Part shown: positions 13,964 to 59,773 of the stretch, in pieces | How the letters are laid out: each line of letters begins with the position of its first letter | How positions within the stretch are numbered: position 1 is the stretch's first letter | DNA from: Candidatus Saganbacteria bacterium | GTDB taxonomy: Bacteria > Margulisbacteria > WOR-1 > XYC2-FULL-46-14 > WPAF01 | DNA: 64,000 bases | Assembly: GCA_016223205.1 (NCBI GenBank) | Contig: JACRPM010000013.1 | Coordinates: 5,002-69,001 of the forward strand | Direction of reading: 5' to 3' | Position numbers and translations under genes: made by a program | Notes under the pieces: generated by a model | Databases searched by the model: none | Told to the model about the DNA's origin: nothing | What the model saw: the letters and a program-made list of their open reading frames with translations, nothing else

Positions 13964-14942
13964 CCGGGATCCCGACTGGGCGGGTTTTTTCAGGCAAGTG
14001 GCAGCCCTTTTTAACGCCGGTCTTTCGCTATCTAAGATATTGGAATTGCTTGAAGGGAAGATCCAAGGTCTTGACCTGAAAAAAATAAGGTCGGGACTGG
14101 AGCAGGGCGGGGGACTGGCCGAGAGCTTGGGGTCATTGGGGCTCGAAAGATCCCTGCAAAACCTGGTTTCTGTGGGCGAAAGGTCGGGGGATCTGGGTGG
14201 GGTCTTAGACCGCGCGGCTGATCTTCTGGATAAAAGGCAAAGCTTCAGGAGAAACCTCCGGCAAGCCCTGACCTATCCCGCTTTTATCCTGATCGCCTGT
14301 TCTTTTTCGATCTTGGGGCTTTTCGTTTTTATTCTGCCGGTTTTTGCATCGATGTTTTCCGACTTTAACTATTCCCTTCCCCTTATCACCCGGGTGCTTA
14401 TCGGATTGCCAAATTATTGGCCGGTTATGCTTTCGGGCCTGGCTTTGCTTATTTGGTTCGCCATAAAGATCAAGACCAGCGACCGGCTAAAACACAAATT
14501 ACCGGTTTTTAACCAGATCCATCGCCATACCCAGGTCTCTTATTTTGCCCGGACCCTGGGATCACAGATCAAGAGCGGCATCTCGATACTGAACGCCCTG
14601 GAGCTTACGGCATCCGGCGCCGATCTTATCTATCGGAATGCCATAAACGATATTAAGCTCCGGGTCGAGAACGGGGAAAAACTAGCTTCCGCCTTATCTT
14701 CTTTTCCCGCGCTTTTCCCCCATACTTTCGATCAAATGGTCGCGGTAGGGGAAGAGACCGGGTCATTGGACACCCTGCTATTGCGCGCCGCCGATTATTA
14801 TGAGAGCGAAGTGGAACAAGCGGTAAAGAGGGCCGCGCTTTTGATCGAACCGGCATCGACTTTGGCCGTGGGATTGATAGTGGGGGTGGTCGCGTTCGCC
14901 ATGATAATGCCGTTGTTTTCCATAATGAATTCGTTATTATAA
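13938..14942 (+). CDS. gspF: type II secretion system F / PilC-family inner-membrane platform protein
   Basis: Two T2SSF repeats and three TM segments. The N-terminus is short; start assigned to ATG 13938, not the track's 13860 whose N-terminus looks out-of-frame. Confidence 0.6.
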   Translation: MRRNFLRSNRDPDWAGFFRQVAALFNAGLSLSKILELLEGKIQGLDLKKIRSGLEQGGGLAESLGSLGLERSLQNLVSVGERSGDLGGVLDRAADLLDKRQSFRRNLRQALTYPAFILIACSFSILGLFVFILPVFASMFSDFNYSLPLITRVLIGLPNYWPVMLSGLALLIWFAIKIKTSDRLKHKLPVFNQIHRHTQVSYFARTLGSQIKSGISILNALELTASGADLIYRNAINDIKLRVENGEKLASALSSFPALFPHTFDQMVAVGEETGSLDTLLLRAADYYESEVEQAVKRAALLIEPASTLAVGLIVGVVAFAMIMPLFSIMNSLL

Positions 14943-14954
14943 GGAGGATATATC

Positions 14955-15365
14955 ATGAAAAGAAAAGGATTCACGCTGATCGAGATCCTGGTCGTGGTGG
15001 GAATAATAGGTTTATTGGCGGTATTTTTGGTGCCCAATCTGCTGGGAGCGCAGGACCGGGCTAAGGAGACGGCGGTGAAAGCGGTGATGCATTCGCTCCA
15101 GCTGGCGGTCGAGTCCTACAATATGGAAAACGAGAGCTACCCGGTGGCGCGGGGAGCGGCAGTCGAGAGTTTGTGCAAGAATTATCTTTTGGTCGGCGGT
15201 TATGTGGGCTCGGTCCCCAAAAATCCCTTCACGGGCAAGGAATACAAGGACGCGGACGTCGCGGGAAAGATAATTTACGATTATAATGACGTCGAAGGAA
15301 GATATACTTTAACCGGATATAAGAGAAATGGAACTTCGAAAATACTCGAGCTTTCTAATATGTAG
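14955..15365 (+). CDS. gspG: prepilin-type N-terminal cleavage/methylation pseudopilin
   Basis: KGFTLIEILVVVGIIGLLA class III signal peptide. Confidence 0.8.
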   Translation: MKRKGFTLIEILVVVGIIGLLAVFLVPNLLGAQDRAKETAVKAVMHSLQLAVESYNMENESYPVARGAAVESLCKNYLLVGGYVGSVPKNPFTGKEYKDADVAGKIIYDYNDVEGRYTLTGYKRNGTSKILELSNM

Positions 15366-16863
15366 CTTATTGCTGATAGCTTCGGCCCAGGCGCTGGATT
15401 TTGACCCGCAGGGCAAGCTCATCTTATCGCTGGGCGGTGAAGTCTCGGTTTTAAACCCCATCCTCTCGACCGATACTTCATCGGGCGCAGTAGAGGGAGT
15501 CATTTTCACGGGGATGACCAAGGTCAACGAGAAGCTTGAAGTCATACCCGATCTCGCCCGATCCTGGAAGATATCACCAGACGGTAAGCTCTGGACGTTC
15601 TTTTTGCGTCGCGATGTAAAGTGGCACGACGGCCGGCCTTTCACCGCGGAGGATGTCAAATTCACCTTCGATTCCATCTTAAATCCCAAAGTCAACTCCG
15701 TCCGCCGCAGTGATTTTATAATTGATGGAAAACCCATCCAATTCAAAGTTATTGATAAATTCACCCTGCAAGCGATACTGCCCAAGCCCTTTGCCCCCTT
15801 CCTGGTGCGCTCGGGGATGAGCGTGATACCAAAACATCTCCTGTCCGGCAAGGATATCAATACCGCGGATTTCAACCGCAAGCCCATCGGGACCGGTCCT
15901 TTTAAATTTGCCGAGTGGAAGACCGGGGATTTTGTCCGGGTGGTGCGCAACGACAAATATTACGACGGCCGGCCTCGTCTGGCCGAGATCCTCTTTAAGA
16001 TCATCCCCGATGAGAACGCAACCCTGGTGGCGCTCGAAGCCGGGGAGATCGATTCGGCCGGTATCCCGCCCAAAGATCTTTCGCGCATGAAGAAGCTTAA
16101 GGGATTGAGCATATACGAATACGACGCCCTGCTTTATACCTATTTGGGATTGAATATGGATAAACCATATTTTAGGGATAAAAGAGTAAGGCAGGCGCTG
16201 GCCTATGCCACCAACAAGAAACAGCTGGTTTCTTTGATATTAAAAGGATTGGGCTCCGCGGCTTATTGTCCCTCGGCGCCTATTTCGTGGGCCTATTCCA
16301 ACGATGTGGAGAAATATCCTTATGATCCAGAAAAAGCGAAAAAACTCCTGAAAGCAGCGGGCTTTGAGAAGCTGGAGTTCACCTGCTTGGTCAATCAGGG
16401 CAATAAAGAACGTGAAAAGGCGGCCATAGTTCTTCAACAGCAATTCAAAAAAGTCGGAGTGAAGATGAATATCCGGGTTTTGGAATGGTCGGCCATGCTT
16501 AAGCTTATCAACAAGCCCACGGCCCCCAAGGATTTTGACGCGATGATCATCGGCTGGTCGCTGGGGCTCGATCCCGACAATTATTCCATCTGGCACAGCT
16601 CCCAATTCCCCCGGGGCTTTAATTTCATCCATTACCAGAATCCCGAAGTGGATAAATTACTCGAAGCCGGCCGCACCACCATGGAAAAAGCCAAACGCAA
16701 AGTCATCTATGCCAAACTGAACCGCCTCATTTCCGCAGACCAGCCATATGTTTTCCTCTGGTATCCTAAGGTGGTCACCGGGGTGAGCGATAAGGTGGGT
16801 GGGTTATCAAAACCGGGCCCGGCCGGATTGTTCCTCAATATCGAAAAGGTCTATAAAAAGTAA
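15328..16863 (+). CDS. oppA: ABC transporter substrate-binding protein, peptide/nickel family (SBP_bac_5)
   Basis: Signal peptide plus family-5 SBP sequence; cognate permeases and ATPases lie 3.2 kb downstream. Confidence 0.8.
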   Translation: MELRKYSSFLICSLLLIASAQALDFDPQGKLILSLGGEVSVLNPILSTDTSSGAVEGVIFTGMTKVNEKLEVIPDLARSWKISPDGKLWTFFLRRDVKWHDGRPFTAEDVKFTFDSILNPKVNSVRRSDFIIDGKPIQFKVIDKFTLQAILPKPFAPFLVRSGMSVIPKHLLSGKDINTADFNRKPIGTGPFKFAEWKTGDFVRVVRNDKYYDGRPRLAEILFKIIPDENATLVALEAGEIDSAGIPPKDLSRMKKLKGLSIYEYDALLYTYLGLNMDKPYFRDKRVRQALAYATNKKQLVSLILKGLGSAAYCPSAPISWAYSNDVEKYPYDPEKAKKLLKAAGFEKLEFTCLVNQGNKEREKAAIVLQQQFKKVGVKMNIRVLEWSAMLKLINKPTAPKDFDAMIIGWSLGLDPDNYSIWHSSQFPRGFNFIHYQNPEVDKLLEAGRTTMEKAKRKVIYAKLNRLISADQPYVFLWYPKVVTGVSDKVGGLSKPGPAGLFLNIEKVYKK

Positions 16864-16910
16864 CTGAAATTTCCCAAAACCCCAGCCGATATTAACCCGG
16901 AGCGATCCAG
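16864..16910 (+). promoter_or_regulatory. promoter-like CTGAAA-N18-GATATT followed by conserved 17-nt leader AACCCGGAGCGATCCAG
   Basis: Identical -35 box and leader recur at 17490-17536 in front of the next gene. Confidence 0.4.
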
Positions 16911-16923
16911 AAGGGAGAAAGAA

Positions 16924-17319
16924 ATGACAGTTAGAATGGCGCGAATGAGGTTTGCCCCCATCAGCGGAGACGGCGGAAAAGACTACCGGAGGGACAATCT
17001 TAAGGCATTGGCAGGCCAAGGGCTTAGCGTTACCCCGAACTTTTTAAGCCAAATCAAAGGAACCAACCGAATTGCCCAATTCTTTAGGATTATGGATCTT
17101 AAGGGCGTTCTGGGGGGGCGGACCGGCACGGTAGAAACGCTGAACCGACTTTTCCGCCGGTGGTACGTACTGCAGACCCACAGCAATCCGGACCCGTTTG
17201 GTGCGCAACGCCCGGGAGAAGATTGGTTTTGCCTTTCAGTAATGGCCAAAGGACCGGCCAAGAAACTTGTAAAAACGATCGATCTGGGAGCATGGTATTA
17301 CAGGCGGATCTGGAGATAG
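16924..17319 (+). CDS. hypothetical protein (island gene 1)
   Basis: ORF with gggag RBS and shared promoter/leader; no recognisable domain. Confidence 0.4.
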   Translation: MTVRMARMRFAPISGDGGKDYRRDNLKALAGQGLSVTPNFLSQIKGTNRIAQFFRIMDLKGVLGGRTGTVETLNRLFRRWYVLQTHSNPDPFGAQRPGEDWFCLSVMAKGPAKKLVKTIDLGAWYYRRIWR

Positions 17320-17489
17320 CGGCCGCAGTTAGGTAGGCAATCAAGGTGCATTGCTGTCGGGTGTTATTGGTTAGCGTTAGGCGAAACGTTTGGCGTCGTG
17401 GGTGCCGCGTGACGCATCTCACCCGACGATTCGCCTGACACAACCGCTACCGTCCAACCCCTTACCTTCCTAAAATATTTCAAATATTA

Positions 17490-17536
17490 CTGAAATTTCC
17501 TATGGGCATAACAGATAATAACCCGGAGCGATCCAG
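17490..17536 (+). promoter_or_regulatory. promoter-like CTGAAA-N18-GATAAT plus conserved leader AACCCGGAGCGATCCAG (copy 2)
   Basis: Second copy of the module; ggagg RBS follows. Confidence 0.4.
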
Positions 17537-17548
17537 GGAGGATTTAAT

Positions 17549-18190
17549 ATGGTTGAGTTAGGAAGATTGGAAAGTTCGATGGCGCGGTTTACCGGGGTGG
17601 GAGCATTACGGAGAGGGGTGGGACTGTGCAGGGCAGATGGCAGTGGATCGGTAAACACTCCACCACAAATAAATGTTCTTGGGCTGCTTATTATGAGACC
17701 AACTGGAAAGTGGGAAGTTTCCCCCGGCAATTTATTTGTTAAATTTAAAGATCGGCAGGGTGAAGCTGGAGTTATCATTGAAAATAGATATTGGAAAAGT
17801 GTGCCAAGAAATATAATGGAGAGGATATTAAAAGTCGATTCATTAATGTGGGATATAATAAGTGGAAAAGACATGATCCATTATTATCTTCCAGAGAACA
17901 TCCCTAGCATGAGAATGTTCGGGGTCGACCTCTTTCCAATCCTAAATCTAAGAGATATTGATAAGGGCGATTCGCCCGAGAAAGATGTTTTAGAAATACT
18001 CACAGCTTTAGGCGCAAGAGATGGCCGTAAGATAGTCGAGGGGGTGCCAAGCTCTTTTAGCAAATATGGGCATTCTTTTTCAGAGATCGGCCAACTCAAA
18101 CAAAGTGTTATGAGCACCTGGGCTAAACATGGTTCCTCAGCAAACAGTGTGCTAAGACGGAACCTGCGACTAAACGTCGCGGTTCCTTAA
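17549..18190 (+). CDS. hypothetical protein (island gene 2), lower GC
   Basis: 213-aa ORF with shared promoter/leader; GC is visibly lower; no recognisable domain. Confidence 0.45.
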   Translation: MVELGRLESSMARFTGVGALRRGVGLCRADGSGSVNTPPQINVLGLLIMRPTGKWEVSPGNLFVKFKDRQGEAGVIIENRYWKSVPRNIMERILKVDSLMWDIISGKDMIHYYLPENIPSMRMFGVDLFPILNLRDIDKGDSPEKDVLEILTALGARDGRKIVEGVPSSFSKYGHSFSEIGQLKQSVMSTWAKHGSSANSVLRRNLRLNVAVP

Positions 18191-18213
18191 ATCTATTGAT
18201 TTTAATCAGGAAA

Positions 18214-18253
18214 CCGCGAAGTTCATTCGCGGGTTTCCTGATTTCTCATGTCA
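18214..18253 (+). terminator. hairpin terminator after island gene 2
   Basis: aatcaggaaaccgcgaa-gttca-ttcgcgggtttcctgatt, a 17-bp stem with one bulge. Confidence 0.45.
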
Positions 18254-18324
18254 TTTTTTCTGTTAACCTGACCGCAATACTTGATAATCATATCCTGGGC
18301 GAAAAATATTATATAGCGGAAGAA

Positions 18325-18449
18325 TAGGGGCTTTTCAAGAGAAAGCGGAAAAGATTTCGGCTTTGATGTAAAAGCCCTCAAAAGGTTGGATAAGATCATG
18401 TTTCCCAATATATCAGCGGCCTTTTTAACGCTAAGCCCTCGGAGAAATC
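18325..18449. repeat. 125-bp direct repeat R, copy 1
   Basis: Near-identical to 19784-19907, with two mismatches; contains the internal inverted repeat agggctttt...aaaagccct. Confidence 0.8.
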
Positions 18450-18487
18450 CTGCATGCCTTGATGATATTGTTTGACATCGTGGTAGT

Positions 18488-19147
18488 TCATTTCCTAAAG
18501 AATATAACCGGTAAACTTTGCCCTTCGACAAACACATAATGCAGTTCCTTGAAACGCGCGCCGATTTTATTGAATCTCAAAGGCAAAGCCCAGGTATCCC
18601 GCATCGGCCTGCTTTCCACAAAATAACCGCCGGGCTTTATTATCCGATAAATGTCGCTTAGCGCCCGGTCAGCGTTGGTATGGGTTGCTCCGGTTAAGAG
18701 ATCATCAGTGTAGGCATTATATTCGCGGGAATACTGTCCCAAAAAGTAGATCATCTCCTTGTTCCAGAAAACCAGATCGATCCTTTCATCGGGGAAGGGC
18801 AGGGTGCGGATATTGGCCCGAACGACGGCCACATGGGGATATCTGGTCTGCACCCGCTGTAAGCCCTCTTGTCTTTGGTCGACTGCTAAAGAAGTTATCC
18901 CCGGGACGTTTGGCAGAAAAGAATGGTCCAGGCATCCCAACTCGACCGCGGTCTTAATGTTGCCGGCCCAGGAATAAAAGACCCCTAAAAAAGCGGAAGG
19001 GGTTTGTTCGAAAAGTCGGGGATCGGTCAGGGGAGAGCCCGACACCCGGAGGTATTTCCCCTTGGGAGCAACCCGACCTTTCACTCCTCTTATGATCTCC
19101 CGGATAAAAGCGTCCGGTTTTCCGCGAACATGCATTACGATATCCAT
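18488..19147 (-). CDS. class I SAM-dependent methyltransferase-like protein (degenerate motif I)
   Basis: Motif I-like VELGCLDHS, acidic motif II ERIDLVF and IIKPGGYFV motif. Confidence 0.5.
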   Translation of the reverse strand: MDIVMHVRGKPDAFIREIIRGVKGRVAPKGKYLRVSGSPLTDPRLFEQTPSAFLGVFYSWAGNIKTAVELGCLDHSFLPNVPGITSLAVDQRQEGLQRVQTRYPHVAVVRANIRTLPFPDERIDLVFWNKEMIYFLGQYSREYNAYTDDLLTGATHTNADRALSDIYRIIKPGGYFVESRPMRDTWALPLRFNKIGARFKELHYVFVEGQSLPVIFFRK

Positions 19148-19184
19148 GGCTGTTTAATTATCGGGCAAAGCCGTTAAGAATTTC

Positions 19185-19220
19185 ATTGACAATTTGCGCA
19201 TCTGGGGCGGGTATTATAGG
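19185..19220 (+). promoter_or_regulatory. sigma70-like promoter module TTGACA-N20-TATTAT, duplicate of oppB promoter
   Basis: ttgacaatttgcgcatctggggcgggtattatag nearly identical to 20081-20114. Confidence 0.35.
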
Positions 19221-19226
19221 AAAGGG

Positions 19227-19778
19227 CTATAGAATCTTTTTAAGGGTATTCCAGATTCTTAAATCTTCGGCCTCGTCCGATAGCTTTTGAGCCCAAGAAT
19301 CAAGATATTTCCTATCAAGCTTGCTGCGGTGCCTTTCGATAATCGATTTAATATCCAAAATATCCCTTTCCCGACCGGGGATGAGCTTTAGTAAAATCAG
19401 GTCTTCGGGAGAAGGAATGTTGACCTTTTTTCCCAGCAGAGTTATTTTCATTTTGCGTTGAAAGGCGGAATCTTCGAAGTCCGTCGACGAAACAATAAAA
19501 TCAACCCAGAGCTCTTCAAAAGATATCCTAAACGCCCCTTTGAGTTCGAGGTCCTTCTGTATAGCTGTTTGGTTAATATCAAATCCCGCTTTTTTCATTT
19601 TAGACAAAAGCGCGATAACGGAAGATTTGGGAATAAAGACAATTAGATCGATGTCCTGCGTCATGCGGGGCTCGCCCAAAACCCCCACGGCCAGCCCCCC
19701 GATCAAAAGATAAGGCGTTTTTTCTTTTTCCAGTAAGGTTATCGTTTTTTGGAAAAGTTTATCGAGCGAGCTTGGCAT
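19227..19778 (-). CDS. nucleotidyltransferase-fold protein (GG...DIDL motif)
   Basis: N-terminal LIGGLAVGVLGEPRMTQDIDLIV is the minimal NTase signature (GS/GG...D.D); C-terminal helical domain. Confidence 0.55.
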   Translation of the reverse strand: MPSSLDKLFQKTITLLEKEKTPYLLIGGLAVGVLGEPRMTQDIDLIVFIPKSSVIALLSKMKKAGFDINQTAIQKDLELKGAFRISFEELWVDFIVSSTDFEDSAFQRKMKITLLGKKVNIPSPEDLILLKLIPGRERDILDIKSIIERHRSKLDRKYLDSWAQKLSDEAEDLRIWNTLKKIL

Positions 19779-19783
19779 GTTTT

Positions 19784-19907
19784 AGGGATTTTTCAAGAGA
19801 AAGCGGAAAAGATTTCGGCTTTGATGTAAAAGCCCTCAAAAGGTTGGATGAGATCATGTTTCCCAATATATCAGCGGCCTTTTTAATGCTAAGCCCTCGG
19901 AGAAATC
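19784..19907. repeat. 125-bp direct repeat R, copy 2
   Basis: See 18325-18449. Confidence 0.8.
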
Positions 19908-20080
19908 TGCTCCTTTTCTTCTCGTTTTCCTTAAGGAATTTATTGATATTTCTTATCATATGTTTATAATTATACCACAAATGAAGACCATATATGCCCT
20001 TTTCGCTTCATAGCCCTGTCGCCTTGTCACCCTCATAGCCCTGCCTGCCCTGAATGCCTTTATAGCCTAGTTTTAAACAA

Positions 20081-20114
20081 GTGAAATTTGCGCATCTGGG
20101 TGCGGTATTATAGA
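20081..20114 (+). promoter_or_regulatory. promoter of oppBCDF (GTGAAA-N18-GTATTA/TATTAT)
   Basis: Immediately upstream of the oppB GTG start; duplicated at 19185. Confidence 0.4.
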
Positions 20115-20125
20115 ATACCGGCAAG

Positions 20126-21023
<898 letters not shown>

Positions 21024-21043
<20 letters not shown>

Positions 21044-21839: not shown

Positions 21840-22614
21840 AGGATTATCTACGAGCTTCTATCAAGATGAGGTTGAGGTAAAAGCTGTGAATGACGTGAGT
21901 TTATCGGTAGCGTCGGGCGAATCGTTGGGCGTCGTGGGGGAGTCGGGGTCGGGTAAATCCACGCTGGCTTTATCCCTCTTGCGGCTGATCTACCCGCCGG
22001 GCAAAATTGTATCCGGAGAAGTTCTTTTTGATGGACAAGACCTCTTGAAGCTGTCGGAGCCGGAAATGATCAAGGTCCGAGGGGCCAGGATCTCCATGAT
22101 CTTCCAGGACCCCTTCACCTCGCTCAATCCGGTATTCACCGTGGGCTACCAGATCGCGGAGGCGATAGCGCTCCATCAGGGGGCAAACAGGAAACAGGCC
22201 TGGAGCAAGGCCGTTGAAATGCTCGAAACAGTCCGTATTCCGCATCCCGCACTCCGCATTCGTGATTATCCCCACCAATTTTCCGGCGGGATGCGGCAGA
22301 GGGTGATGATCGCGATGGCGTTGGCCTGCCGGCCCGAGATATTGATCGCGGACGAGCCCACCACCGCGCTCGATGTCACCATCCAGGCGGAGATACTCAA
22401 ATTGCTTAAGGACCTGCAAAAGGAGCTTAAGCTTTCCATTATATATATCACCCACAATTTCGGCATCGTGAAGCAGATGTGCGAGCGGGCGGTGGTTATG
22501 CATTTGGGTAAAGTGGTGGAAGAGGGCCGGATACAGGAAATTATGGATAATCCTCGGGAAGCTTATACCAAGAGTTTGATCGACAGTTTAAAGGTGTTGA
22601 ATGATAGAAGTTAA
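21826..22614 (+). CDS. oppD: ABC transporter ATP-binding protein (OppD-like)
   Basis: Walker [10 protein letters not shown] and FSGGMRQRV signature. Confidence 0.85.
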
Positions 22615-23372: not shown

Positions 23373-23573
23373 ATGAAAGAATTCCGCTGCAAATTTTGTC
23401 ACCGGCTTTTGGCCAAGGTAGGCGAGGCCAAGAAGGTGGAGATCAAGTGTCCCAAGTGCAAGACCATGAATCTCTTCCGCGATGACGAGGTGCTGGTGGT
23501 GGAGATCGACGAGACCCACCTGCGCAAGCAGATCCTAAAAGGCAAGATCACCTACAGCGTTATCAATAATTGA
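23373..23573 (+). CDS. Com-like zinc-ribbon protein (phage Mu Com family), paralogue 1
   Basis: MKEFRCKFCHRLLAKV...IKCPKCKT, a four-Cys zinc ribbon resembling Mu Com. Confidence 0.65.
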   Translation: MKEFRCKFCHRLLAKVGEAKKVEIKCPKCKTMNLFRDDEVLVVEIDETHLRKQILKGKITYSVINN

Positions 23574-23617: not shown

Positions 23618-23824
23618 ATGAGCGAAGAGAACATGAAAGAATTCCGCTGCAAGTTCTGCCACCGGCTTTTAGCCAAGGTGGAAGACGCCCTCTCGGTTGA
23701 GATCAAGTGCCCCAAATGCAAGACCTTAAACCTCTATAACAGTGAAGAGATCGTGATCGTCCAGATGGACGAAGATTACCTCAAGCGCAAATTCAACAAA
23801 AACCTCGAAGCCGACCCCGTCTAG
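23618..23824 (+). CDS. Com-like zinc-ribbon protein, paralogue 2
   Basis: Same CxxC...CxxC core, about 70% identical to paralogue 1. Confidence 0.65.
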   Translation: MSEENMKEFRCKFCHRLLAKVEDALSVEIKCPKCKTLNLYNSEEIVIVQMDEDYLKRKFNKNLEADPV

Positions 23825-54499: not shown

Positions 54500-54596
54500 T
54501 TTTTCAAATGCCGGTGCGATCTCGCGGGGATGATAGGCGACGATCAGGCCGTTAGGATCCGAAAAAGCCCGATCTTTGAATTCTATATAAATAAAA

Positions 54597-54624
54597 AGCC
54601 ACCCTTCTTACCTGGGTGGCTTTA
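54597..54624. terminator. bidirectional hairpin terminator
   Basis: aaaagccaccc-ttcttacc-gggtggcttt. Confidence 0.5.
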
Positions 54625-54699
54625 TGGCGAGCGGAGTCGAACCATTAGCCTGACATGGCGCTTGAATTATAGCATAATATAATGATAAGATATTTCACA

Positions 54700-55644
54700 A
54701 TGCCGCCTAAGACAAATCTTGAATATTTCAATGTTTCCATGGACAATCCCGAGTTTTTAATTGACGGCCATTATGCGCATCTGGAAAACATTTTATCAAA
54801 TACGCAAATAATAAATAATGTAAATGCAATTCGTGAGGAAATTAAAAGGTTAACGTCGGAAGGCGTAAAGTATCAGAAGATCGATTATTTAAAACTATTT
54901 AATCTATTAAGAGCCGAAGGCGCCCAACTAACCGAATTGTCCGCATTTGCTGTTGCTTGCGGGATGAGTCATTCTTCCCTGGTTAGTCTGCCTCAAGGAA
55001 GCGCTTTGGAGGCCCTTCAAAATATAATCGATTTATATAAGAAAAACCGCGCTATTTTATATTCAAACATTGATAATAAATACGAAATTATTCAAGCCAT
55101 GTACGATGTTCGCGCGTCTTCAAGAAGGGGCAAGATCGGGCAGGATAAAATATTGAAGATCTTATTGGAAAGAGGAGTGCCACAAACTAACATCTGGAGC
55201 AGTTTCGAGAATGACAAAAACGCAGTTGCCGTCACACAAAACGCAGGCGCCTTTTCAATTAAGAATCTGCGGAAATATCTCCGTATAAGTTTCGATTTCC
55301 GGCATCAGGAAAAAATTATCGATATTCTGCTTAAGATTAGCGGACACTATTTTCTGATTGAAGCAAAACACATCGACGAATCCGGAGGGGCCCAAGACAA
55401 GCAGATATCCGAAACCATCGATTTGATAAAACTTACCGAAAAAGGGAACGGAATTCACTACCTTTCTTTTTTAGACGGAAGATATTCAATCGGATTATTC
55501 GGCAAAAACAGTATAACCCCCAGCCCCAGAAATAAAATGGATCGGCAAAGGAATGAAATTCTGGCAACATTAAAAAGAAATAAGCAAAATTATTATTTGA
55601 ACACTTTCGGTTTTATAAAGCTTCTGGAAGATTGCGCCGGATGA
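54700..55644 (+). CDS. putative type II restriction endonuclease (PD-(D/E)xK-like), AT-rich
   Basis: IIDIL...FLIEAKH fits the D...ExK motif; cotranscribed with an NPPY methyltransferase; about 35% GC. The track start 54682 overlaps a TATAAT box. Confidence 0.5.
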   Translation: MPPKTNLEYFNVSMDNPEFLIDGHYAHLENILSNTQIINNVNAIREEIKRLTSEGVKYQKIDYLKLFNLLRAEGAQLTELSAFAVACGMSHSSLVSLPQGSALEALQNIIDLYKKNRAILYSNIDNKYEIIQAMYDVRASSRRGKIGQDKILKILLERGVPQTNIWSSFENDKNAVAVTQNAGAFSIKNLRKYLRISFDFRHQEKIIDILLKISGHYFLIEAKHIDESGGAQDKQISETIDLIKLTEKGNGIHYLSFLDGRYSIGLFGKNSITPSPRNKMDRQRNEILATLKRNKQNYYLNTFGFIKLLEDCAG

Positions 55645-57104
55645 AAGATATAATCACAAAAAAAAGAGGAAGGTTCTATACTCCGCAAGAAATATTTAAT
55701 CGTTATATTTATGGGCCGTTTCTAAGCGACCTGAAACTTTCGGATTATATAATTGTTGATTTTTTCTGCGGAACGGGAGACCTTCTAATTCCGCTGATAG
55801 AAAGGTTTGATAATATAGGAGAGAGGAATAAGATATTTCGTGAAAATATTTTCGGTTTTGACATCGACGGCTATGCGCTAAGCATATTTAAGGGTAGACT
55901 TTTACAGATGGGCATAAAAGAAAAATACATCAATGAAAATATCATAAAAAAAGATACGCTAAAGGAATTGCCTTTGGATCGCTTGCACGGGAAAAAAATA
56001 ATACATATAACTAATCCTCCTTATCTCTATAAAGGATATTATGTGAAACAAAAAGAAACCCGGGAATTGAACGGGTATTTTGACAATCTGGACATCCCAC
56101 TGCAGGACCTGTATCAAAAGGCCTTATATAATGATGTAATGGGGAATCTTGAAATGATGATTTATATTATCCCTTCAAATTATTTATTCGGTGAAGTGTC
56201 GGCCGGCGCCATTAGAGATGCGGTTTTTAATCGCTATTCAACCGATAGAATATTCTGGTTTACCAAGCAAATCTTCGATGAAACCGACATCAATACGATA
56301 ATATTGAGATTAAAGAGGAAAAAGACGGCAGTCAGGGAAATACAGGATATAAAACTCATAGAATGCAATGGCCGGGAGAAAGAAAGTAAAATTAAATTGA
56401 ACCCAAGCAATCATTATCGCGCCGGTTTTGAGTGGGACGAATGGCTTCAAAAAAAGAAAGCTAAGAATCACCCTGATTTTGAATACTACTTAAAAACAGA
56501 AGACCTAAAAAACAATAAGGGCAAAAATGAGGTATGTGTTTATGATTTTAGCATCTCGAAATGCAAAAAATATTCTGTAAATAACGAGGTGTGTAGGAAG
56601 ATTAGAAAGAATCATTTAATTATCCGTACATTGGATACCGGATCAAATAATGGAAGAATAGGTATTTATGAACATTCAAAAATATATGGAACGGCCGGCT
56701 TAACAACTTCAAAAGGATGTTTTAGGACGACGCCGATACAGATATTATTTTATAGGGAATTATCTTATACAGATCAAATATTTATCATGAAATGGTGCAA
56801 TTATTGGCTGGAATATTTCCGAGGTAAATTAAACAGCATATTCCTGACTACTTATCGCCACACCTCGAAGAATTATACCCGAAAAATTATCGGACTAAAA
56901 AAAGTCAAAGAATTAATATTTACCTGTCCGGTTTTATCTTGCGGCGCAGAGAAAAAACAAGCGATATTGAGATCAATCGAAGCTAAAAGTCACGCGGAGC
57001 TATTAAATATAATAGAAGAAAGAGATAGCGACGGCGATCTTTCTTTTCGGATACCCGAGAAGGAAGTTAATCGGATAAAATATTCAGCATACCAATATGC
57101 ATGA
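55632..57104 (+). CDS. N6-adenine DNA methyltransferase (gamma-class, type II R-M)
   Basis: GRFYTPQEI, FCGTGDLL motif I and NPPY motif IV; AT-rich. Confidence 0.75.
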   Translation: MRRMKDIITKKRGRFYTPQEIFNRYIYGPFLSDLKLSDYIIVDFFCGTGDLLIPLIERFDNIGERNKIFRENIFGFDIDGYALSIFKGRLLQMGIKEKYINENIIKKDTLKELPLDRLHGKKIIHITNPPYLYKGYYVKQKETRELNGYFDNLDIPLQDLYQKALYNDVMGNLEMMIYIIPSNYLFGEVSAGAIRDAVFNRYSTDRIFWFTKQIFDETDINTIILRLKRKKTAVREIQDIKLIECNGREKESKIKLNPSNHYRAGFEWDEWLQKKKAKNHPDFEYYLKTEDLKNNKGKNEVCVYDFSISKCKKYSVNNEVCRKIRKNHLIIRTLDTGSNNGRIGIYEHSKIYGTAGLTTSKGCFRTTPIQILFYRELSYTDQIFIMKWCNYWLEYFRGKLNSIFLTTYRHTSKNYTRKIIGLKKVKELIFTCPVLSCGAEKKQAILRSIEAKSHAELLNIIEERDSDGDLSFRIPEKEVNRIKYSAYQYA

Positions 57105-59230: not shown

Positions 59231-59773
59231 TTAGAGGTTGAAGCTCTGCAGGAACGAGCCGGTCATGTAAGCGTTGTAGCTCATGCTCCCGGTGCCGGAA
59301 GCTCTGGTATCGGGCAGCATATAGCGGGCTTCCACTCCTGCGTTAAAACCGCCGAGTGAAAAAATAAGACCGGTTTCCGCCTGCACGCCCATGGTGGAGC
59401 TGGTCAGGGGGCCCACGGTGGCGGTGTAATAGCCGATGCCCGCGCCCACATAAGGAGTAAGCATTCCCAAAAGCGACTGGCGGTAGATGAGGTCCACGGT
59501 TATCGGGGTCAAGCTGGTCTGGACGCCGGCCACGCTATAGGTGGTGGTCTCAACCGCCGCTCTAGCCGAAAGGAAACTGGTGATCGCGTATTCTGCGCCC
59601 AAACCGTACATCACCGAGGCGCTGGCGCCGACTCCCGGAGGGGAATACAATCCCGCGCGGCCCGAGACCGTAAGGTTGCCGGCGAAAGAGGGAGAGACCA
59701 AAAGGAGAAGTAACAGAATACCCGCGAATGAATTCGCGGTTAAATTTAGGCGAGAATTTATTCTCGGCTTCAT
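59231..59773 (-). CDS. outer-membrane beta-barrel protein (OmpW/OmpA-like small barrel)
   Basis: Signal peptide, alternating beta pattern and C-terminal ...SFNL ending. Confidence 0.6.
   Translation of the reverse strand: MKPRINSRLNLTANSFAGILLLLLLVSPSFAGNLTVSGRAGLYSPPGVGASASVMYGLGAEYAITSFLSARAAVETTTYSVAGVQTSLTPITVDLIYRQSLLGMLTPYVGAGIGYYTATVGPLTSSTMGVQAETGLIFSLGGFNAGVEARYMLPDTRASGTGSMSYNAYMTGSFLQSFNL

Follow-up and report, generated by a model that had tools for sequence, protein, structure and literature searches.

What occupies the gap between oppA and oppB in the Candidatus Saganbacteria MAG from which the 64,000-nt window analysed here is taken, and did its contents arrive as one unit? 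The left border of the gap is oppA (15328-16863, + strand), which encodes a family-5 solute-binding protein (Pfam SBP_bac_5, E 8e-103) with orthologues of 72-94% amino acid identity at the related loci L004, L005, L086 and L089. The right border is the permease gene oppB (20126-21043, + strand; Pfam BPD_transp_1, E 2e-46), whose product is 97-98% identical to those of L086, L089 and L095 and which is followed by oppC, oppD and oppF, reaching 23320. The original prediction, that 3.2 kb with borders at 16863 and 20126 separates the two genes and that this segment is accessory, was borne out: in Saganbacteria bin.592 (L005) the two genes overlap and there is no insert of any kind, and the content of the gap differs among relatives. 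From the gene content, homologies, synteny, repeats and hairpins observed at the locus, we consider it fairly probable (roughly 0.7) that the gap is a permissive, recombination-prone slot rather than one island, holding four unrelated kinds of content that include a mobile toxin-antitoxin cassette.

The enzyme of this putative cassette is a 183-aa nucleotidyltransferase encoded on the - strand at 19227-19778 (Pfam DUF6036, E 6e-9), a candidate toxin that had been counted among four proteins resembling no characterised system. For this protein that description was wrong, since profile, hhalign and Foldseek searches all led to MenT1. Its family profile matched PDB entry 8an4 (MenT1) over residues 6-151 with an E value of 4e-13, hhalign gave a probability of 96.3%, and the best five Foldseek matches to its AlphaFold2 model (pLDDT 95) were all MenT1 entries (TM 0.62-0.69). 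Identity between the two proteins is only about 20%; residues T40, D42, K131 and D142 align with the key MenT1 residues T39, D41, K137 and D152 (PMC11375011) and are invariant across 40 homologues. Judged by profile E value, hhalign, the TM score of 0.69 for the predicted structure and these key residues, the nucleotidyltransferase is a distant MenT1 homologue. Against the AbiEii/DUF1814 Pfam cut-off of 22.5 bits it scored 16.5, below the threshold, whereas MenT1 scored 36.4, above it, and the AbiEii matches returned by PADLOC for the locus were all sub-threshold.

A fifth gene, missed in the original prediction, lies immediately upstream. This 66-aa ORF (19759-19959, - strand), the putative antitoxin gene, overlaps the start of the nucleotidyltransferase gene by 20 nt, as do its orthologues, likewise of 66 aa, in L084, L086 and L087, so that the same overlap is seen in four different genomic contexts. 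The partner family is present at 17 loci and the gene has a dN/dS of 0.095 against L086; no sequence similarity was found between the family and MenA1 or any PDB chain. More widely, in 63 of 84 loci with relatives of the nucleotidyltransferase an ORF of 44-105 aa abuts the gene start, and these ORFs form eight recurrent sequence families that have been swapped between loci. A recurrent small upstream partner is typical of a toxin-antitoxin cassette, and a conserved overlapping partner together with swapping of partner families is a hallmark of toxin-antitoxin pairs. By analogy, the nucleotidyltransferase would have toxin activity and the 66-aa protein would function as its antitoxin. An enzyme of this fold might instead modify small molecules such as antibiotics, in the manner of LnuA or ANT(2'')-Ia, with the small ORF incidental or regulatory; Foldseek did return LnuA (E 8e-7, TM 0.55-0.62) and ANT(2'')-Ia (TM 0.61-0.65), and there was a weak LnuA profile match (E 0.08). 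We regard this as unlikely, since MenT1 is the best match in both sequence and structure, the C-terminal Lys and DxxD corresponding to MenT1 K137, D149 and D152 are invariant, and the tightly overlapping partner is so widely kept while its families are exchanged.

If the pair is, as we prefer, a mobile two-gene toxin-antitoxin cassette with the 66-aa gene first and the DUF6036 nucleotidyltransferase second, homology to MenT1 suggests that the enzyme would add nucleotides to the 3'-CCA ends of tRNA, by which aminoacylation and translation would be blocked. The small, probably helical partner would neutralise the toxin, perhaps by binding and possibly also by inducing auto-phosphorylation of the conserved Thr40, and loss of a labile partner would release the toxin to arrest growth, leading to locus stabilisation or abortive infection. 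An AT-rich, putative divergent promoter region lies at 19943-19977. On the + strand, TTGATA-16-TATAAT (19943-19970; 11/12 positions match) faces oppB, and on the - strand an extended -10 element, TGGTATAAT (19977-19969), can be read directly just upstream of the 66-aa gene.

The 125-nt direct repeats said to bracket the gene pair are real (18325-18449 and 19783-19907, 97% identical), but they are a piece of the antitoxin gene and a truncated copy of it, not the ends of an element. Repeat B (19783-19907) is an internal piece of the 66-aa gene, while repeat A (18325-18449, - strand) comprises codons about 18-59 only and, relative to the family, is missing 17 codons at the start and 7 at the end. 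The 104-aa ORF that encloses repeat A has a codon score of 0.004 and no gene call on record, and repeat A is most likely a pseudogene scrap.

Repeats of this kind also raise the question of whether the assembly path was mis-threaded, through the 125-nt copies or a repeated hairpin, between co-existing strain variants, which would make the arrangement partly an artefact. Logan short-read contigs do break at the repeated hairpin (18158) and within the 125-nt repeats (18399/19886); independent contigs leave 18159-18398 and 19886-20085 unbridged, the deposited contig being the sole source of the joins there, and by our own reasoning from graph logic the short contigs would fit an alternative pairing of repeat flanks equally well. 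We nevertheless think such an artefact very unlikely. Two stretches, oppA-ORF1-ORF2 and repeat A (part)-methyltransferase-P'-nucleotidyltransferase-repeat B (part), are each confirmed by independent Logan contigs, the sole alternative topology is an implausible 1.46-kb circle without a replication function, and the two repeat copies differ at four positions and are therefore resolvable.

A further - strand gene encodes a divergent, 219-aa protein of the class I SAM-methyltransferase fold (18488-19147; Methyltransf_11, E 9.5e-10) with an atypical motif I, ELGCLDHS. Just six protein clusters of this family are known, and its best PDB match is RlmA with an E value of only 0.0017. ORF1 (131 aa, 16924-17319, + strand) has an orthologue of 79% amino acid identity in L089 and a distant homologue, P0129 (35% identity, E 7e-12), between oppA and oppB in L095/L096; it found no match in Pfam, PDB or PHROG. 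Nucleotide identity between ORF1 and its L089 orthologue starts at 65% at the 5' end and rises along the gene, reaching 94-97% at the 3' end. That the ORFs of the segment are coding is supported for ORF1 and the methyltransferase-like gene, with dN/dS values of 0.27 (against the L089 orthologue) and 0.22, and is less clear for ORF2, with a codon score of -0.05 against 0.33 +/- 0.10 for host genes. On this comparative evidence, ORF1 is a real lineage-specific gene that occupies the slot in relatives too.

ORF1 is preceded by leader 1 (16862-16923, + strand; direct repeat D2), which includes ACTGAAATTTCC ... TAACCCGGAGCGATCCAG together with a ribosome-binding site of GGAG type and also precedes the L089 orthologue. 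Leader 2 (17477-17548, + strand) duplicates the ORF1 leader in diverged form and is joined to ORF2; it is 78% identical to L089 7929-7854 and retains an upstream ATTTCAAATA that is present in L089 and absent from leader 1. The two had been described as identical promoter and leader modules, which overstates the case: leader 1 and 17482-17536 are 76% identical over 55 nt (79% over 48 nt), with one exact 18-mer and one exact 12-mer in common.

ORF2 itself (17549-18190, + strand) is an orphan of 213 aa without a Pfam match, and it matched only itself among 5.8 billion proteins and nothing in phages, plasmids or IMG/VR. Its AlphaFold2 model has a pLDDT of 32. With a GC content of 0.438, ORF2 may be chimeric, the 5' end of ORF1 having been joined to foreign low-GC DNA. 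By our own estimate, however, 213 codons without a stop would arise by chance with a probability of about 4e-6; ORF2 is too long for a chance ORF at its GC content and therefore may be a real gene, so that the label 'scrap' may undersell it. The spacer between ORF1 and ORF2 holds a 39-nt fragment (17364-17402, + strand) that is 85% identical to 21901-21938 in the 5' part of oppD. This spacer had been called hairpin-rich, yet 17310-17550 folds no better than shuffled sequence (z -1.46). A strong hairpin (dG -26.6 kcal/mol, z -6.6) does lie between the convergent gene sets at 18204-18243; it is a repeated element, with a 29-nt copy at 59714-59741 and a 24-nt match in L007, and is probably a bidirectional terminator.

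A further hairpin (20085-20136, + strand; dG -26.8 kcal/mol, z -5.1) spans the ribosome-binding site of oppB and its GTG start codon (20126) and is followed by a U-run. It is near-invariant in L086, L089 and L095, with 21/21 pairs kept and no compensatory changes in the pairs among these three. The supposed second copy of the oppB promoter is a partial copy of this hairpin, 5' arm and loop only, at 19191-19219 (+ strand): the 29-nt duplication exists (26/29 nt match 20085-20113, 90%; 30/31 nt match the L086 element), but what was half copied is the conserved start-codon hairpin. From these alignments, 19191-19219 is a scar left by recombination rather than a demonstrated promoter.

Whether the segment is nonetheless one island is best judged from what fills the slot in relatives. 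Between oppA and oppB, L095/L096 carry the ORF1-like gene alone, L089-L091 carry the methyltransferase gene on the opposite strand and then ORF1 (87% and 79% amino acid identity to the window copies), and L086 carries the nucleotidyltransferase (79%) and 66-aa genes alone on the opposite strand; in L092 the methyltransferase gene (58%) is convergent with oppA. The window combines all of these parts with orphan ORF2 and sequence scraps, and the complete 3.2-kb block was found in no relative compared. GC content, which averages 0.519 (SD 0.052) over the window, had been predicted to drop across 17.5-19.8 kb; it is low in two separate troughs, from ORF2 to repeat A (0.40-0.44) and over the nucleotidyltransferase and small gene (0.38-0.43), while the methyltransferase gene (0.506) and ORF1 (0.528) are host-like. 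Given their host-like GC content and presence at the same slot in relatives, the latter two genes look like long-standing residents rather than recent arrivals.

A single, recently acquired accessory or defence island in which ORF1, ORF2, the methyltransferase and the nucleotidyltransferase cooperate, as originally proposed, would account for the low-GC parts, the direct repeats flanking the methyltransferase-nucleotidyltransferase pair, the absence of the full block from relatives and the juxtaposition of a methyltransferase and a toxin-like enzyme, which bears a superficial likeness to modification-dependent defence systems. We give it very little credence: most components occur singly at the same slot, the host-like methyltransferase and ORF1 genes have their orthologues there, other genomic contexts hold the nucleotidyltransferase pair but not the methyltransferase, the direct repeats turn out to be part of a gene and one half of a hairpin, and the syntenic annotated locus L089 has no recombinase within ~8 kb to the left or right. 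Nor is an undescribed defence-like module supported: the nucleotidyltransferase pair resembles MenAT1, and we found no evidence that the segment's four or five genes form a single system. It is scarcely credible that the pair is instead a HEPN-MNT type VII system, with the nucleotidyltransferase as antitoxin and the small protein as toxin: although the enzyme has a minimal Pol-beta fold, as MNT proteins typically do, and shares a two-gene operon with a small protein, that 66-aa protein has half the length of a HEPN domain, its alignment shows no Rx4-6H motif, and the nucleotidyltransferase has the extra C-terminal helical region and Lys/DxxD of MenT/AbiEii-type toxins.

The slot is, then, an ordinary mosaic accessory region that includes a further, putative MenT1-like cassette of toxin-antitoxin type. 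Beside that cassette, it would comprise a lineage-restricted methyltransferase-fold gene long in place, the lineage-restricted, fast-diverging small gene ORF1, also a slot member in relatives, and a ~1.2-kb low-GC patch of scraps (the oppD fragment, the fusion of the duplicated ORF1 leader to ORF2, the repeated terminator hairpin and the truncated antitoxin gene). Rather than functional borders, the direct repeats of 125 and 29 nt would be by-products of these rearrangements.

Such a slot recalls integron cassette arrays and accessory-gene hotspots, in that differing small genes occupy one fixed position among relatives and its junctions carry short repeated sequences. It differs in having no integrase or recombinase nearby (as checked in L089), no recognised attC-like sites and genes in mixed orientations. 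Stem-loops between binding-protein and permease genes are familiar from ABC-transporter operons, e.g. malE-malF and hisJ-hisQ. The very stable, conserved hairpin between oppA and oppB is similar and by analogy could set the OppA : OppBCDF ratio, although it overlies both the ribosome-binding site and the GTG start of oppB and its U-run falls inside coding sequence.

Among nucleotidyltransferases, LnuA and ANT(2'')-Ia share the compact fold (TM 0.55-0.65), but their sequence signal is much weaker and they lack a conserved small partner gene. AbiE (AbiEi-AbiEii), a type IV toxin-antitoxin and abortive infection system, and MenAT3 and MenAT4, which have COG5340 antitoxins, involve the same nucleotidyltransferase superfamily, with weak AbiEii matches in Pfam and PADLOC, and resemble the present pair in being two-gene operons that begin with the antitoxin. 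AbiEii toxins are, however, about 250-300 aa against 183 aa here, their antitoxins are transcriptional regulators of about 200-300 aa rather than a 66-aa partner, and the AbiEii matches fall below curated thresholds. The comparison is closest to MenAT1 (Rv0078B-Rv0078A) of Mycobacterium tuberculosis, in which the nucleotidyltransferase toxin MenT1 (PMC10435456, PMC11375011) is encoded with MenA1, a 68-aa helical antitoxin (PMC10435456). The present pair differs in its Pfam family (DUF6036 against AbiEii/DUF1814 for MenT1), in its low identity to MenT1, in a partner without detectable similarity to MenA1 and in its host, an uncultivated Saganbacteria lineage. The two agree in size, each pairing a nucleotidyltransferase of ~185-195 aa with a small protein of ~66-68 aa; MenT1 came out best in the sequence-profile, profile-profile and structural comparisons, and the phospho-acceptor Thr and catalytic Asp, Lys and Asp are kept.

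The gap between oppA (15328–16863; SBP_bac_5, E 8e-103) and oppB (20126–21043), the latter followed by oppC, oppD and oppF, has the borders described in the original prediction, but the set of genes reported within it was incomplete. ORF1 (16924–17319, 131 aa) and ORF2 (17549–18190, 213 aa) lie on the plus strand, and a methyltransferase-like gene (19147–18488; Methyltransf_11, E 9.5e-10) and a nucleotidyltransferase gene (19778–19227; Pfam DUF6036, E 6e-9) on the minus strand, together with a fifth, previously missed gene of 66 aa (19959–19759), recognized from homologous loci, whose end falls 20 nt inside the nucleotidyltransferase gene. Scans of all island ORFs against NCBIfam, PADLOC and PHROGs gave nothing for ORF1, ORF2 and the small ORFs and only sub-threshold matches for the methyltransferase and the nucleotidyltransferase, and the antisense ORFs beneath ORF2 had no family matches. 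The direct repeats reported earlier do exist: a 125-nt pair (repeat A, 18325–18449, and repeat B, 19783–19907; 97% identical), a 55-nt pair forming the leaders of ORF1 and ORF2 (16856–16910 and 17482–17536) and a 29-nt pair (19191–19219 and 20085–20113). No third copy of any of these repeats, leaders included, exists in the window, and none of the island genes has another copy there. The leaders, described as identical, are merely similar (76%), and the supposedly hairpin-rich spacer between ORF1 and ORF2 folds no better than shuffled sequence (z −1.46); within this spacer, a stretch of 39 nt matches the 5′ part of oppD at 85% identity. An Rfam covariance-model search over 16500–20500, covering leaders, spacer and hairpins, gave no match at E ≤ 1. 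The low GC content noted at 17.5–19.8 kb is real but forms two separate troughs rather than one continuous drop, the first running from ORF2 to 18487 (0.40–0.44, against a window mean of 0.519, sd 0.052) and the second covering the nucleotidyltransferase and small gene (0.38–0.43), with the methyltransferase (0.506) and ORF1 (0.528) being host-like.

The state of this slot in other genomes was established by an OppA scan of one genome per species, along with look-ups of homologues. In Saganbacteria bin.592 (L005, ~69% nucleotide identity to the window) the gap is empty and oppA overlaps oppB. In the related loci L095/L096 (OppA 90% and OppB 97.6% identical in amino acid sequence) it holds one ORF1-like gene on the same strand, the product of which (P0129) is 35% identical to ORF1. 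In loci L089–L091, from a Margulisiibacteriota MAG (~87% nucleotide identity in the flanks), the order is methyltransferase (87% aa identity, convergent with oppA), the same leader as in the window with ORF1 (79% aa identity), and oppB; locus L092 (~70% nucleotide identity) also carries a methyltransferase (58% aa identity) convergent with oppA. In locus L086 (~84% nucleotide identity) the gap contains only the 66-aa gene and the nucleotidyltransferase (79% aa identity), on the opposite strand. The window slot therefore combines the contents of all these relatives, plus ORF2 and scraps; its separate parts recur at this position in relatives, but the whole block does not and is unique to the window genome among the relatives compared. 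An integron or IS element is ruled out, as the syntenic annotated neighbourhood (that of L089) holds no recombinase or transposase and no meaningful inverted repeats were detected. Tandem duplication of a 1458-nt unit is likewise rejected because the copies share only 125 nt. We find no support for reading the block as a single, recently acquired island or defence module, since its parts occur singly in the same slot of relatives, GC content is host-like in the methyltransferase and ORF1, no recombinase was found in the L089 neighbourhood, and the repeats represent a gene fragment (125 nt) and half a hairpin (29 nt). The gap thus does not show the full combination of features that defines a recently acquired genomic island, namely absence of the whole block from relatives, atypical composition throughout, and mobility genes or element ends. 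Both the methyltransferase and ORF1 appear to be long established in the slot. The original observation is largely real, but what it took for a possible undescribed defence island is a permissive, mosaic accessory slot with one interpretable module, a putative MenT1-like toxin–antitoxin cassette, beyond which it contains lineage-specific genes and recombination debris. In this uncultivated phylum, the transporter operon accommodates extra DNA between the gene for the binding protein and those for the permeases, and these findings leave current understanding intact.

Other variable or unusual regions were observed in the window. A second variable spot lies 1–2 kb upstream of oppA (window 14029–14663, L089 10625–11942), where only L089 has a gene for a 139-aa 23S_rRNA_IVP-family protein between the T2SS-F-like and pilin-like genes; the 3′ part of the window T2SS-F-like gene is far more diverged from L089 (55% aa identity) than its surroundings. 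Directly 3′ of oppF are two tandem small genes (23373–23573 and 23618–23824) encoding Mu Com-like zinc ribbons (PF10122), which are kept in L089. The most pronounced low-GC stretch in the window is at 54500–57100 (0.33–0.40 versus 0.52), where genes for a Tsp45I-like type II restriction enzyme (54682–55644) and an N6 DNA methylase (55632–57104) are flanked by a gene for a chorismate-binding enzyme and one for cation efflux; as a candidate acquired defence island, this region is more convincing than the opp gap.

The element described as an oppB promoter, with a near-exact copy inside the island, is a 52-nt hairpin (20085–20136; ΔG −26.8, z −5.1) over the oppB ribosome-binding site and GTG start, where a promoter scan gave no flag. 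In this hairpin ATTTGCGCA pairs with the GTG start together with the AAGG that precedes it; the hairpin is followed by UUCUUUUUU, with a U-run. The internal copy (19191–19219) does match it over 29 nt at 90% identity but comprises only the 5′ arm and loop. The complete hairpin is nearly invariant in the window, L086 (2163–2112), L089 (7446–7395) and L095 (880–931; coordinates approximate), four genomes with synonymous divergence of 0.7–0.9, and no compensatory changes were found in L086, L089 or L095. It may exert translational or attenuation control over the OppA:OppBCDF ratio, or may be a palindromic operator. The promoter scan also detected a sigma-70-like site matching at 11 of 12 positions (19943–19970, plus strand) inside the toxin–antitoxin cassette and directed toward oppB; this cassette-borne site and the conserved hairpin probably keep oppBCDF expressed.

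A further hairpin (18204–18243; 17-bp stem, ΔG −26.6, z −6.6) separates the convergent gene sets. The core of this terminator-like structure (18212–18240) recurs inverted ~41 kb away at 59714–59741 and in L007, another Saganbacteria MAG (45–68), and may represent a small dispersed palindromic repeat family. Its recurrence probably explains a break in the independent support for the assembly: independent Logan assemblies of two runs reproduce oppA-ORF1-ORF2 up to 18158 and, separately, 18399–19886 (from within repeat A to within repeat B, through the methyltransferase, the 29-nt copy and the nucleotidyltransferase), and look-ups found no contigs spanning 18159–18398. The joins across 18159–18398 and 19886–20085 are known from the deposited contig alone; the deposited protein entries for the nucleotidyltransferase, ORF2 and methyltransferase come from a Candidatus Saganbacteria MAG, in which they lie on a contig of 91.7 kb.

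The 125-nt repeats had been described as bracketing the nucleotidyltransferase–methyltransferase pair. Repeat B corresponds to codons ~18–59 of the 66-aa gene, and repeat A is a copy that is missing 17 codons at its start and 7 at its end and continues into unrelated sequence; the 104-aa ORF enclosing repeat A has a codon score of 0.004 and no coding signal. The repeats are therefore the 66-aa gene and its truncated duplicate, and the duplication appears recent because the two copies are 97% identical to each other versus 81% to L086. As to the other junctions, ORF1 directly follows oppA in the window, as in L095 and differently from L089, the window methyltransferase is joined directly to the half oppB hairpin, and the toxin–antitoxin cassette is flanked by this half hairpin and the complete one. 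A 10-nt repeat (AATTTGCGCA) is present twice in L089, and it could have mediated exactly the deletion that took ORF1 out of the methyltransferase–oppB gap. We infer that several illegitimate events would be needed to produce the slot, in an order that is ambiguous from L086, L089, L092 and L095.

ORF1 is a real gene, as shown by purifying selection against its L089 orthologue (dN/dS 0.27). Its nucleotide identity to that orthologue (7856–7461) is 65% at the 5′ end and 94–97% at the 3′ end, with flanks at ~87%, and its identity to the L095 copy (447–866) is 33–37% in local and global alignment where the neighbours share 90–98%. These alignments point to mosaic recombination or to rapid N-terminal divergence, and may reflect diversifying selection on the N-terminal half. 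An exhaustive HMMER search with ORF1 found one distant homologue only, and a three-sequence profile matched nothing in PDB or Pfam, that is, no known domain or solved relative. ORF2 found only itself among 5.8 billion proteins, phages, plasmids and IMG/VR; its codon score is −0.05 (host 0.33 ± 0.10), and a single-sequence AlphaFold2 model was uninformative (pLDDT 32). At its 5′ end, the leader and initial codons are a duplicate of the ORF1 ones, and ORF2 may be a chimera or may have formed or been acquired recently; by our own estimate, its length argues against a pure chance ORF.

Class I SAM methyltransferases have a Rossmann-like domain with a glycine-rich motif I (E/DxGxGxG), an acidic residue after strand 2 and further motifs beyond. 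The slot methyltransferase scores above the Methyltransf_11 threshold (39.4 versus 21.2 bits) and has a conserved acidic residue (D90) and KPGGY motif, but motif I is atypical and throughout its family reads ELGC[LW][DN]xx (ELGCLDHS in the window), with the second and third glycines replaced. Only six protein clusters were found among 5.8 billion sequences; dN/dS is 0.22, RlmA is its best match in PDB with an E-value of only 0.0017, and a 38%-identical homologue elsewhere lies beside an 879-aa gene of unknown function. No functional link with the toxin–antitoxin pair is seen, since L089 and L092 carry the methyltransferase without the nucleotidyltransferase. The dS between the window gene (18488–19147) and its L089 orthologue is 0.30, compared with 0.71 and 0.94 for the flanking oppA and oppB, which hints at more recent exchange between the two lineages.

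The claim that no island protein resembles a characterized system fails for the nucleotidyltransferase, which has at least 146 homologues. A profile of 40 sequences matched PDB entry 8an4, the Mycobacterium tuberculosis toxin MenT1, with E 4e-13 over residues 6–151, hhalign gave a probability of 96.3% against MenT1, and the five best Foldseek matches of an AlphaFold2 model (pLDDT 95) were all MenT1 entries (TM 0.62–0.69), with LnuA and ANT(2″) ranking below. The Pol-beta nucleotidyltransferase motif I (G-[GS], 9–13 residues, D-x-D) is present, with G27, G28, D42 and D44 invariant or nearly so in the 40 homologues. MenT1, which extends tRNA 3′ ends (PMC10435456, PMC11375011), has four residues singled out in earlier work, the phospho-acceptor T39, D41, K137 and D152 (PMC11375011), and these align with T40, D42, K131 and D142, none of which varies within the family.

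The 66-aa gene is called in all homologous loci (a 73-aa ORF listed for the window starts 7 codons too early), and its 20-nt overlap, found also in L084, L086 and L087, provides the short co-transcribed partner gene that characterizes MenAT1-like systems. An extended −10 (TGGTATAAT, 19977–19969, minus strand) lies 9 nt upstream of its ATG, a position that suggests a nearly leaderless antitoxin mRNA. Across 84 loci, comprising the window and 83 others with relatives of the nucleotidyltransferase, a small ORF (44–105 aa) abuts or overlaps the nucleotidyltransferase start in 63. By sequence, these partners group into eight recurrent families, of which that of the window gene is found at 17 loci, and at two other loci (L084 and L087) the pair lies in unrelated neighbourhoods. 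A conserved toxin with swappable small partners in a mobile context is a signature of toxin–antitoxin systems. In the same two loci, 1–1.5 kb from the cassette, a DUF5674 gene is followed by a gene of ~100–110 aa (L084 6224–6870, L087 2183–2853), which may together be another two-gene module travelling in these neighbourhoods.

There is also a more ambitious reading, which we consider unlikely. The oppB-start hairpin and the shared ORF1-type leader might serve as recombination or capture sites, so that the oppA–oppB gap would be a recombinase-independent cassette slot, ORF1 a diversifying gene tied functionally to peptide uptake, and ORF2 a chimera of recent origin that uses a second copy of the ORF1 leader for its expression; separately, DUF6036, with about eight interchangeable small partners, could be a large uncharacterized branch of MenT-like tRNA-targeting toxins, with antitoxin mechanisms that could differ from that of MenA1. 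The low identity of ORF1 (~35%) between genomes in which the flanking opp genes share 90–98%, and its 5′ to 3′ gradient against L089, fit this reading.

Within the mosaic accessory slot that we favour, it is the cassette that can be compared with a known system. Its nucleotidyltransferase passes the threshold of Pfam PF19502 (DUF6036; 36.3 bits versus a cut-off of 23.6) but fails that of AbiEii (PF08843; 16.5 versus 22.5), which MenT1 passes with 36.4 bits; it is in the same superfamily as MenT1 but in a sister family, DUF6036. We found no paper naming DUF6036. The MenT1-like reading gives this family a testable function, with at least eight small partner families flagged as candidate antitoxins. 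MenT1 is neutralized by MenA1, a helical antitoxin of 68 aa; one MenA1 contacts two protomers of the toxin and triggers their auto-phosphorylation at T39 (PMC10435456, PMC11375011). The 66-aa family has no detectable sequence relationship to MenA1: a profile of 13 partner sequences found no PDB chain below E 0.17 and missed the MenA1 chain of 8an5. By analogy, the pair most likely works like MenAT1, and the module would be a new instance of the MenT/AbiEii-type nucleotidyltransferase toxin–antitoxin kind, equipped with a partner other than MenA1.
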